A stretch of 64,000 nucleotides of DNA. Source: Nevskia sp. Lineage in GTDB: Bacteria; Pseudomonadota; Gammaproteobacteria; Nevskiales; Nevskiaceae. The notes under the pieces are model-generated. The model was not told the DNA's origin and did not search any database. It saw only the letters and a list, made by a program, of their open reading frames with translations. Position numbers and translations under genes: made by a program. Position 1 is the first letter of the stretch, and every line of letters begins with the position of its first letter. The stretch covers positions 13,659 through 77,658 of the forward strand of contig JALNYU010000017.1 of assembly GCA_023229645.1 (NCBI GenBank). The letters are read 5' to 3'. Below, one piece after another: positions 1,572 through 23,093 of this stretch.

Positions 1572-1796
1572 ATGAAAACGCGCTTCGTATTAAAAGGTGG
1601 GCGTTTGGCTTTCGCCGCTGGCGCATCGGCTTATTTAGCGGGTGCAAGCCAAGCTTTTAATATGTTCCCGGATCCGGGCCGGGTACGGCAGGTGCTACGT
1701 ACTTCACAGGAATCCGATGCGGTATCGCTCCAACGCGATGCCATTGCGCTGCAAAATGACGCGAAGCGAGCGATTAAAAAAGACTTTACCCGCTAA
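1572..1796 (+). CDS. Small hypothetical protein of the kind usually found upstream of DUF2335 genes
   Basis: 74-aa ORF with C-terminal SD..SL..D..AL..D pattern; same strand as the DUF2335 gene. Confidence 0.55.
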   Translation: MKTRFVLKGGRLAFAAGASAYLAGASQAFNMFPDPGRVRQVLRTSQESDAVSLQRDAIALQNDAKRAIKKDFTR

Positions 1797-1801
1797 GGCC
1801 T

Positions 1802-2121
1802 GTTATTGAGTCGGCATCAAGACATTGAACCGTACGTGCGCCATTGAAGCCTATTGCGTCCTGGCGAACGTGGTGGATGAGCCGACTCAATAACCAAAAT
1901 ACATTGATTTTGTTATTGATCCGGCCGCCGCAACATGCGCCCGAACCGATTCTTGCCGAAGCGATCAGCCTGTCAGCCGATCAATGTCAAACAGCCGGAT
2001 CAATAACGCTGATGCAGCCGCTGCGACGGCAGCCGTGAACCGCCAGTGCAACGAGGACGGCGCAGGCAATGCTGGTTCCCTTGCGCGACGACCGATACCG
2101 CAATGGCGGCTCGCGGTTCAC
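1802..2121. repeat. Three consecutive long inverted-repeat (hairpin) units
   Basis: GTTATTGAGTCGGC 1802-1815 / GCCGACTCAATAAC 1881-1894; GTTATTGATCCGGC 1912-1925 / GCCGGATCAATAAC 1994-2007; GTGAACCGC 2035-2043 / GCGGTTCAC 2113-2121. Confidence 0.85.
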
Positions 2122-2155
2122 CAGGCGGATTTTTGACTTATAACGTAGTGATCGC

Positions 2156-2656
2156 ATGACTGTTAACAGGCCCCAGATGCCGAACGACGACGCGCCGCAG
2201 ACCCCCGTCGATAAAGTTGTTGCTGAGGTTGCCCGCACAACGCACGATCTGCCCCCCGAGCGGCAGGAAGAAATCGCAAACACGATGCGTATGGCGTTGC
2301 TGGAAACGCGGTTTTCTGGCCCATTACCGCCGCCAGATATGCTGGCGAAATATCAAGAAATCATTGCAAACGGCGCCGAGCGGATCATGGCGTCTACTGA
2401 GCGCGAACAAGCGCATCGGCATTACGTGGATAAAGCGTTGGTCGATGCCGAAATTGCCACGGCAAGCCGCGGCCAAATCATGGCTTTCATATTGGCCTTG
2501 GTGTGCATCGCCGTTGCGCTGGTGCTCGGTTTGTATAGCCACGATGTGCTTGCTGGCGTGATCGGCGGCGGAACACTGGTGTCGGTTGTCACCATTTTTA
2601 TCGTCGGCCGCAAAAACAAAAACGGCAAGCCGAAAGACGATACGGAAAGCCAATAG
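2156..2656 (+). CDS. DUF2335 family membrane protein
   Basis: FSGPLPPPDMLAKYQEIIANGAERIM...EQAHRH signature plus two C-terminal TM helices. Confidence 0.88.
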   Translation: MTVNRPQMPNDDAPQTPVDKVVAEVARTTHDLPPERQEEIANTMRMALLETRFSGPLPPPDMLAKYQEIIANGAERIMASTEREQAHRHYVDKALVDAEIATASRGQIMAFILALVCIAVALVLGLYSHDVLAGVIGGGTLVSVVTIFIVGRKNKNGKPKDDTESQ

Positions 2657-21452: not shown

Positions 21453-23093
21453 ATGTCCGCATTGACCGATAGTGGTGCATGGCGAGCCCTGCAGGAGCAG
21501 GCCCGGGCTGAGGCTGGACTCACACTGAACGAACGCTTTGCCGCTGACCCCGAGCGCGCGCAGCGGTTTTCGCTCGACGCCGTTGACCTGTTTCTCGACT
21601 ACTCCAAACAGCGTGTCGGCAGCCGTACGCTGGATCTGCTGTTTGCGCTGGCCGAGCAGCAAGACCTCGCCGGCTGGATTGGCCGGATGTTTTCCGGCGA
21701 GGCGATTAACCACACCGAACACCGGGCCGTCGGCCACGTTGCCTTGCGCGCGCCACGCGGCAGCGAAATCAAAATGGCCGGGGTTAACGTCGTGCCGGCC
21801 GTTTATGAGGTGCTGGACCGGATGACGGTCTTTGCCGATGCCGTGCGCGGCGGGACTTGGCGCGGTGCTACCGGCATGGCGATTACCGATATCGTCAATA
21901 TCGGCATTGGCGGTTCGGATTTTGGTCCGCGCATGGTTTGGGACGCGTTGTCGGATGCTTCGATTAAGCCGCGAGTGCATTTTGTTGCCAATGTCGACGG
22001 CGCTCAGCTCAGCACGGTGCTGTATCGGCTGAAACCTGAGCGGACGCTGTTCATCGTCACCTCGAAGACGTTCACCACGCAGGAAACGATGGCCAACGCC
22101 CGTTCCGCGCGTGACTGGCTAACGCAGACGCTGGGTGAAACGGCGGTCGATAAGCATTTCGTCGCGGTCTCGACCAACGGCGCCGAAGTCGCGAAATTCG
22201 GCATTTCACCGGACCACATGTTCGAGTTTTGGGATTGGGTCGGCGGCCGCTATTCGTTGTGGTCGTCGGTTGGCTTAGCCAATCTCGTCGCGCTTGGTCC
22301 GCAAACGTTTCGCGCCATGCTCGACGGCGCCCACGCGATGGACGAGCACTTTCGACGCGCGCCGCTGAAAGTGAACATGCCGGTGCTGCTGGGTTTGCTG
22401 GCGGTTTGGAACACGAACTTTCTCGGTGCAGCGAGCCAGGTTGTATCGCCGTACGCGCAGCGTCTGCGCCGCTTTGTCGGCTGGCTGCAACAGCTGGAAA
22501 TGGAGTCAAACGGCAAGGGCGTGGACCGCGAAGGCCGAACGCTCGACTACGCGACGACCCTGGTTTTGTGGGGCGATATCGGCACCAACTCGCAACACGC
22601 GTTTTTTCAAATGTTGCACCAGGGCGCGGCGCTGCATCCGGTTGACTTCATCTTGCCGGTGAAGCCCTTGCATTCGCTGCCGGAACAGCAACCGCTGTTG
22701 ATCGCAAATTGTTTGTCGCAAAGTGCGGCGCTGATGCGCGGCAAAACCGCGGCCCAAGTGCGCGCAGAGTTAATCGCCCGCGGCATGCCCGAAGGCGAAC
22801 TGGATGCCGCTGTGCCGCATCGCGTGTTCACCGGCGACCGGCCGAGCAGCACGATTTTGCTGCCACAGCTCGACGCTTGGCATCTCGGCGCGCTTTGCGC
22901 GTTGTATGAGCACCGCACGTTCGTCATGAGCGTGCTGTGGAATATCAATGCCTTCGATCAGTGGGGCGTCGAACTCGGCAAGCAGCTGGCGCAGCAAGTT
23001 TCGGCGGCGCAAGGGCCCGAACCTGACGCCAATGCAGTTGCTGCGCTGGATGCCTCGACGTTGCAACTATTGGAGCGTACGCGTGGCGTTTAG
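21453..23093 (+). CDS. pgi: Glucose-6-phosphate isomerase
   Basis: IGIGGSD, TSKTFTTQE, WVGGRYSLWS, FDQWGVELGK. Confidence 0.96.
   Translation: MSALTDSGAWRALQEQARAEAGLTLNERFAADPERAQRFSLDAVDLFLDYSKQRVGSRTLDLLFALAEQQDLAGWIGRMFSGEAINHTEHRAVGHVALRAPRGSEIKMAGVNVVPAVYEVLDRMTVFADAVRGGTWRGATGMAITDIVNIGIGGSDFGPRMVWDALSDASIKPRVHFVANVDGAQLSTVLYRLKPERTLFIVTSKTFTTQETMANARSARDWLTQTLGETAVDKHFVAVSTNGAEVAKFGISPDHMFEFWDWVGGRYSLWSSVGLANLVALGPQTFRAMLDGAHAMDEHFRRAPLKVNMPVLLGLLAVWNTNFLGAASQVVSPYAQRLRRFVGWLQQLEMESNGKGVDREGRTLDYATTLVLWGDIGTNSQHAFFQMLHQGAALHPVDFILPVKPLHSLPEQQPLLIANCLSQSAALMRGKTAAQVRAELIARGMPEGELDAAVPHRVFTGDRPSSTILLPQLDAWHLGALCALYEHRTFVMSVLWNINAFDQWGVELGKQLAQQVSAAQGPEPDANAVAALDASTLQLLERTRGV

Follow-up and report, generated by a model that had tools for sequence, protein, structure and literature searches.

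The textbook precedent for a bacterial MITE (a small non-autonomous transposon) tied to an IS630 transposase is RUP with IS630-Spn1. RUP is a small non-coding intergenic repeat of 107 bp, present in 108 copies, that inserts at TA, often within other mobile elements; at its termini it has inverted repeats like those of IS630-Spn1, an insertion sequence (IS) of the IS630 family (PMC2229807). The Correia or NEMIS elements of Neisseria, ~107-155 bp in length and present in many copies, have inverted-repeat ends and a terminal TA, and their transcripts form long stem-loops (PMC2229807). In the IS630 family itself, an N-terminal domain with two helix-turn-helix motifs binds the terminal repeats, and movement is by cut-and-paste via double-strand excision, with duplication of TA (PMC2170065).

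The locus considered here lies in a stretch of 64,000 nucleotides from Nevskia sp. (the window), which is part of contig C10 in a 4.26-Mb draft assembly with 59% G+C and 42 contigs. Adjoined by hsdM and a gene for a DUF2335 protein, the region very probably consists of two nested MITEs of the IS630/Tc1-mariner superfamily, here called family 1 and family 2 (Table 1). Like RUP with IS630-Spn1, family 1 is a small MITE with IS630-type ends and a TA target that nests in mobile elements (PMC2229807). It is set apart from RUP by its preference for a TTAA context and by its mostly two-unit, four-site build, RUP being described as a single unit. Going by the published description of RUP, the ends of the two are unrelated in sequence, and the host of RUP is Gram-positive, whereas family 1 is found in Gamma- and Betaproteobacteria. 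Family 1 also resembles the Correia elements, which are short and multi-copy, with inverted-repeat ends and TA termini; the review names no cognate transposase for Correia (PMC2229807), whereas family 1 has an identified parent IS. In addition, Correia elements fold end to end, while each family-1 end pairs with its own inner arm, and no IHF site or promoter was found in family 1. In comparison to IS630-family ISs, the window copy of family 1 has no gene and comprises only ends and inner repeats, the latter being absent from the IS. Family 1 is ordinary in kind, and its conserved two-unit, four-site architecture is a modest variant of a known theme.

Table 1. Features of the two nested elements, in window coordinates
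Feature	Position	Strand	Evidence
Family-2 left TA target duplication	1794..1795	.	Other family-2 copies read C-TA-GGGCCTGTTAAC...GTTAACAGGCCC-TA-G
Family-2 element (probable MITE) AGGCCTGTTA...GTTAACAGGCCC, ~175 bp of own sequence, split by family 1	1796..2173	.	End-to-end alignment with 7 genomic copies
Family-1 element (probable MITE) including split TTAA target	1803..2006	.	Six other full genomic copies, 84-95% identical; paralogous empty and filled sites
Family-1 element proper, TTGAGTCGGC...GCCGGATCAA	1806-2003	.	Lies between TA duplications 1804-1805 and 2004-2005
Outer arm o1, full-length terminal inverted repeat TTATTGAGTCGGCATCAAGACATTGAAC, NN = GT	1803..1830	+	Matches right end (IRR) of parent-type IS
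Inner arm i1, GCCGACTCAATAA, complements first 13 nt of o1; closes unit 1 (1803-1893)	1881..1893	-	Inverted-repeat search; arm covariation in 79 units
A/T-rich linker CCAAAATACATTGATTTTG, 19 nt; with i1 and i2 forms a 45-nt central hairpin	1894..1912	.	Inverted repeats and folding
Inner arm i2, TTATTGATCCGGC, opens unit 2 (1913-2006)	1913..1925	+	Inverted-repeat search; unit type also solitary at two contig C7 loci
Outer arm o2, full-length terminal inverted repeat (reverse complement TTATTGATCCGGCTGTTTGACATTGATC, NN = TC)	1979..2006	-	Matches left end (IRL) of parent-type IS
Third hairpin, conserved internal inverted repeat of family 2, GTGAACCGCCAG...; unrelated to family 1	2035..2121	.	Family-2 alignment; nine genomic matches to 2021-2116

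In the proposed sequence of events, a family-2 MITE would first have entered a CTAG site between a small ORF and the DUF2335 gene. A family-1 MITE of ~200 bp would later have entered the TTAA within the family-2 left inverted repeat, duplicating TA. Its outer inverted repeats of ~28 bp are homologous to the right and left ends of an IS630-family IS that is intact in other Nevskia. The element consists of two ~93-bp units, and what closes each unit on the inner side is a 13-16-nt copy of that unit's outer end. The transposase would presumably be supplied in trans, with its N-terminal helix-turn-helix domains binding the ends; it would excise the element, which would then be pasted into TA, probably with a preference for T-TA-A.

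The motif GTTATTGA(GT/TC)CGGC occurs exactly four times in the window, at 1802(+), 1881(-), 1912(+) and 1994(-), against 0.42 expected from shuffles, none of which (0 of 100) holds four or more. The four motifs in alternating orientation that an earlier, sequence-only reading of this DNA had described are thus real, as are the two units that they were said to bound, each closed by a 14-nt inverted-repeat pair with 100% complementarity (1802-1815 with 1881-1894, and 1912-1925 with 1994-2007). The repeat finder also recovered the 27-nt outer arms of that reading (1802-1828 with 1981-2007, 74% complementary), the mirrored one being o2, and its linker hairpin (1881-1898 with 1908-1925; 18 nt, 83% complementary). 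Folded as single-stranded DNA and compared with shuffles, unit 1 reaches -27.7 kcal/mol (z -6.8), unit 2 -19.1 kcal/mol (z -3.3) and the linker -10.8 kcal/mol (z -6.2). For the region as a whole, the fold of lowest energy has the two unit hairpins side by side, together with the third hairpin. This third unit had been counted as a member of one array with the other two. Its 12-nt inverted-repeat pair is present (2035-2046 with 2110-2121, 92% complementary), but its fold of -20 kcal/mol (z -1.2) is matched by 24 of 200 shuffles and alone is no better than chance, and the hairpin belongs to a different repeat family, family 2.

Homologues, for which the same reading had suggested a search, place family 1 as a dispersed repeat in the source genome and in other taxa. 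The repeat is ~205 bp long and carries TTATTGA-NN-CGGC four times in the order + - + -. Exact copies of the motif TTATTGANNCGGC number 230 in the genome, against ~1.4 expected, and the genomic motifs group into 57 four-motif (+ - + -) elements of ~205 bp and 16 lone + - units of ~93 bp, small, non-coding and dispersed as near-identical copies. With ~70 copies in the genome, a one-off fold-back duplication is refuted. Start-to-start spacings in the four-motif elements are ~80/31/82, and the spacers between motifs alternate between long (~65 nt) and short (~19 nt). The linker gap of 10-25 nt was set by the search pattern, and linkers in other taxa are ~14-24 nt. ORFs across family-1 elements are short ones only, mutually overlapping and on both strands. 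With a crude ORF caller used for intergenic context, 54 of 72 family-1 elements were left unclassified.

The main family-1 subfamily has 47 full copies, with a mean identity of 97.9% to the consensus and orientations of 24 versus 23, while the subfamily of the window copy has seven full copies with a mean identity of 92.9%. Copies that are 98% identical indicate a recent burst of family 1, and the 47 near-identical copies indicate that the whole element is what moved most often. Eight lone units occur without the linker, all of one unit type and at unique sites. Because one unit type is also found alone at unique sites, the inner arms appear to function as transposon ends. At two loci (C17:47208-47302 and C22:257445-257539), a single unit with the linker is found beside a restored TTAA, inside a minimal family-2 palindrome; one reading is a clean loss of the other unit, and alternatively these could be one composite copied by a family-2 transposase. 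The element at C19:15016-15221 is chimeric, its first 124 nt belonging to the window copy's subfamily and its second unit to a different one, which suggests that units have been exchanged.

Beyond the source genome, the distribution of family 1 is patchy, near-absent among relatives yet present in distant orders. The central hairpin is counted 55 times in the source genome, 0-4 times in each of 18 congeners and 0 times in 12 genomes of the same order. The + - + - layout also occurs in Solimonas, Hydrocarboniphaga, Panacagrimonas, Stenotrophobium, Thiobacillus/Thiobacillaceae, Sulfuricaulis and 'Muproteobacteria'. Plasmid and phage collections, searched as possible carriers of family 1, gave no match. 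In the library of papers searched, the family-1 motif strings matched only unrelated gene-expression studies in zebrafish and other fish and one cancer paper, and the repeat appears to be unnamed so far. The earlier suggestion of an unnamed miniature element is supported and made specific as two nested IS630-derived MITEs, so that a widespread, apparently unnamed repeat of the Nevskiales, Thiobacillaceae, Sulfuricaulis and 'Muproteobacteria' is tied to a concrete IS630 lineage.

Family 2 has ends that read CTAG|GGCCTGTTAAC. Positions 2021-2116 match nine other genomic loci without family 1, where the ends read CTAG|GGCCTGTTAACAC.TATGCG, and with family 1 removed, 1792-2177 aligns end to end with seven family-2 copies at ~72-87% identity; on the right, the TA duplication (2174-2175) is now a decayed CA. 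Family 1 occupies exactly the TTAA of the family-2 left end. Intact family-2 ends read CCTGTTAACAC, and the window reads CCTG-TTA[TTGAG...ATCAA]TAA-CGC. Paralogous sites show the same relation in ~15 cases, with CCTG-TTAA-CAC when empty versus CCTG-TTA[...]TAA-CAC when filled. In all, ~15 of 72 family-1 copies split a family-2 TTAA, in left ends, right ends or minimal 24-bp family-2 palindromes. The simplest reading of these junctions is that family 1 inserts at T-TA-A with duplication of TA. The sequence-only reading had seen no obvious target duplication, but one of TA is present within the TTAA target (1804-1805 and 2004-2005). The evidence for this duplication comes from paralogous sites, congeners being too divergent (79-86% in coding flanks). 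When 4.5 kb of joined flanks from 15 elements were searched in 30 relatives for orthologous empty sites, only coding flanks were matched and no junction was spanned. Together, the paralogous pairs form a clean natural record of how a target (TTAA) is chosen and of how one MITE comes to nest in another.

The size of family-2 elements varies, with forms of ~30 bp (the two ends only), ~60, ~170 and ~285 bp, of which the short ones are near-perfect palindromes; size variants lie at C32:20962-20991, C6:71722-71782, C22:240265-240323 and C42:16450-16508. Similar to the family-2 ends is the inverted repeat TGGCCTGTAACAATT found in a complete IS of the IS630 family that resides in this genome and has a CTAG target. 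At C23:3980-5085, outside the window, an IS630-family IS is present in full, and further copies of it lie at many contig ends; it is ~1.1 kb long, encodes a transposase of 344 aa, targets CTAG and has ends that read TGGMCTGTAACAATT. This IS is likely related to the enzyme that moves family 2.

For family 1, the parent IS was sought by a search for transposase relatives in the genomes that carry the repeat. Nevskia sp. GL93 has two intact IS copies (L147 and L150), whose transposases of 340 and 344 aa score 214-218 bits to NF033545 'IS630 family transposase' (cut-off 100) and whose ends read TA|TTGATACGGCATTTAGACATTGAAC and TA|TTRAGTCGGCATTTAGACAATGAAC. The outer arm o1 is identical to the IRR of these copies at 25 of 28 bases, and o2 to their IRL at ~22 of 27. 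A related multi-copy IS of 1134 bp, with ends TTATTGACTCGGCATTAAAATATACGAAC and TTATTGATTCGGCCTTCAAATAGTAGAAC, is found in Nevskia sp. C18, and its transposase has HTH_33, HTH_32 and DDE_3 domains in Pfam. The presumed parent resembles ISY100 and other IS630-family ISs in having one transposase gene with N-terminal helix-turn-helix and DDE domains, inverted repeats of ~24-29 bp, cut-and-paste movement and TA duplication (PMC2170065). The base before the flanking TA varies across IS copies (A, C or T, and also C...G in a third lineage), and therefore the TA is the duplication, while the extra T and A around the MITEs reflect target preference. From these matching ends, both families are best regarded as MITEs, which IS630 transposases would mobilise in trans and insert with a duplicated TA. 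In the IS of Nevskia sp. C18 (L140/L135, at ~470-500), the transposase frame is broken by what looks by eye like a near-palindromic insertion of ~19 nt, GCCGGAGCATGTCTCCGGC, where relatives read HWGDE(S/T)GLRSDD; a tiny inserted hairpin may be the cause, or an artefact of assembly.

In the source assembly, the search for an intact cognate IS returned only a decayed relic at C11:9422-10190, alongside a different IS630-family IS; the 42-contig draft breaks at several IS copies, as seen from its contig ends. The different element, 'IS-B', has ends that read TTACTAATAAGTCAG and TTAA-type junctions, and is seen as 14 contig-end matches that represent at least seven copies, the interior being missing from the draft (contigs C4, C5, C6, C8, C11, C12, C17, C18, C36, C38, C39, C40 and C42). 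One copy of 'IS-B' lies inside a family-1 element, at the TTAA of that element. The ends of 'IS-B' and family 1 have in common only the outermost TTAYTRAT and the inner ..TAG..GAAC block. As a partner of family 1, 'IS-B' was rejected: the middle block of its inverted repeats differs, it is absent from relatives, and a close homologue (E <= 1e-10) is found in only 4 of 20 other family-1 genomes. Lone motifs in the source genome were also considered as IS ends, and the candidates are decayed MITE copies.

Neither the inner arms nor their covariation with the outer arms would be expected under the classical MITE model. Covariation was assessed in 79 units from ~22 genomes, with 38 four-motif elements from other genomes compared with the two source-genome subfamilies. 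In those 38 elements, 89-95% of units have an NN in the outer arm that is complementary to the one in the inner arm, and none of the elements (0/38) has the same NN in both of its units. All 79 units are paired at position 8, where three pair types occur, and 73 of them at position 9, where there are four types; pairing decays from 60 of 79 at position 14 to 34 of 79 at position 16. Cells in which both sides have changed number 174, against 68 +/- 6 in shuffles, and 0 of 500 shuffles reach 174. The covariation that the sequence-only reading had proposed to look for is accordingly found across lineages in the arms, while the unit interiors show no compensatory change (covariation term +2.77). 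Parent IS left and right ends already differ at NN (TA versus GT, and CT versus TT), which explains why the two units of an element differ there. The match within a unit, on the other hand, has no simple source, as the IS has no inner arms (none were found in L147 and L150) and, of the family-1 arms, only the outer ones have the full 28-nt repeat. The match may have arisen through physical pairing of the arms at some stage, with selection or conversion keeping them complementary, or else each type of unit was copied from one IS end. This raises the question of why each end keeps a covarying inner complement that is missing from the parent IS.

One answer would be that the hairpins are the selected feature, with each end folded on its inner complementary arm in single-stranded DNA or read-through RNA, and this is considered unlikely, though more probable than the other alternatives. 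Such a fold may regulate transposition, or may process, stabilise or terminate host transcripts; that the element is a structured module and only incidentally mobile is similarly doubtful. The arm covariation described above argues for selection on pairing, as do the conservation of the + - + - geometry across orders and the absence of inner arms from the parent IS. Furthermore, an NN that is never common to both units (0/38) favours side-by-side hairpins over a central or whole-element fold, in agreement with the minimum-energy fold. Against this, the interiors of the units have no compensatory changes, no Rfam family matches, no promoter- or terminator-like site rises above chance within the element, and copies are found equally in both orientations. 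In addition, the NN difference between the parent IS ends is sufficient to explain why the units differ, and the shuffle control does not correct for relatedness among units. It is correspondingly improbable that family 1 represents an undescribed structural class of bacterial MITE, with ends base-paired to inner arms in two ~93-nt modules around an A/T-rich linker. If it did, selection in both Gamma- and Betaproteobacteria would act on an 'end-masking' fold of single-stranded DNA or RNA, which could time the availability of the ends to the IS630 transposase or shape read-through host transcripts.

REP units are imperfect palindromes of 20-40 nt with a conserved GTAG-like head. A REP/BIME-type system, in which short palindromes in alternating orientation are spread by a RAYT (Y1, IS200-like) transposase, is brought to mind by the alternating motifs with spacers of ~65 and ~19 nt, which are like the regularly spaced, alternating REPs and two alternating spacer lengths of BIMEs (PMC2817692), and by the Y1_Tnp homologue at C40:226-555 in the source genome. 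Nevertheless, such an origin is very unlikely for family 1. The 13-nt motif TTATTGANNCGGC is no palindrome and lacks a GTAG-type head, in agreement with the earlier statement that there is no GTAG REP foot, and the Y1 gene has no family-1 motif in its vicinity, the closest ones on C40 being at 22103-22226. Neither a palindromic GTAG-headed unit nor a RAYT gene flanked by the repeats was found. Unlike BIMEs, family 1 duplicates TA on insertion, and its ends match IS630 inverted repeats over 28 nt. The gene at C40:226-555 (PF01797, 52.6 bits, IS200/RAYT-like) lies beside a third repeated contig-end sequence and may point to the presence of a separate REP-type system.

Of the readings proposed from the sequence alone, that of recombinase sites, by which the 65-68-bp segments or a 152-bp span would invert as a phase switch, has hardly any probability left: the 14-27-bp inverted repeats do allow several nested pairings, but these repeats are transposon ends, the ~70 copies at unrelated loci are all collinear with the consensus (among them the 47 + 7 full-length copies, and likewise a copy from another species), and the neighbouring genes are hsdM and DUF2335, with no adjacent recombinase gene. 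The proposed conformational-switch RNA is not supported. The Rfam search of the region returned as its sole match a chance miRNA, which scores 22.7 bits where the gathering score is 80, and compensatory changes are confined to the terminal arms, the unit interiors (+2.77) having none. Neither a promoter- or terminator-like site above chance nor an IHF site was found in the element. Integron attC sites have the consensus cores R'' RYYYAAC and R' GTTRRRY and lie in cassette arrays beside intI. As a candidate attC, the central hairpin TCAATAAC...GTTATTGA was rejected, with only one of three purines in the R' core and copies dispersed at ~70 loci without a cassette array.

For annotation, the region is to be regarded as transposon debris rather than as a switch or riboregulator, and a false lead is thereby removed. 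MITE sequence includes the stop of the ORF at 1572-1796 as well as the first ATG in the DUF2335 frame. The TAA stop of this 74-aa ORF, which has no Pfam match, is made up of the TA duplication (1794-1795) and A1796, the first base of family 2. In the DUF2335 frame (2156-2656), the first ATG (2156) lies inside the family-2 right inverted repeat, which makes the ATG at 2177 the probable true start.
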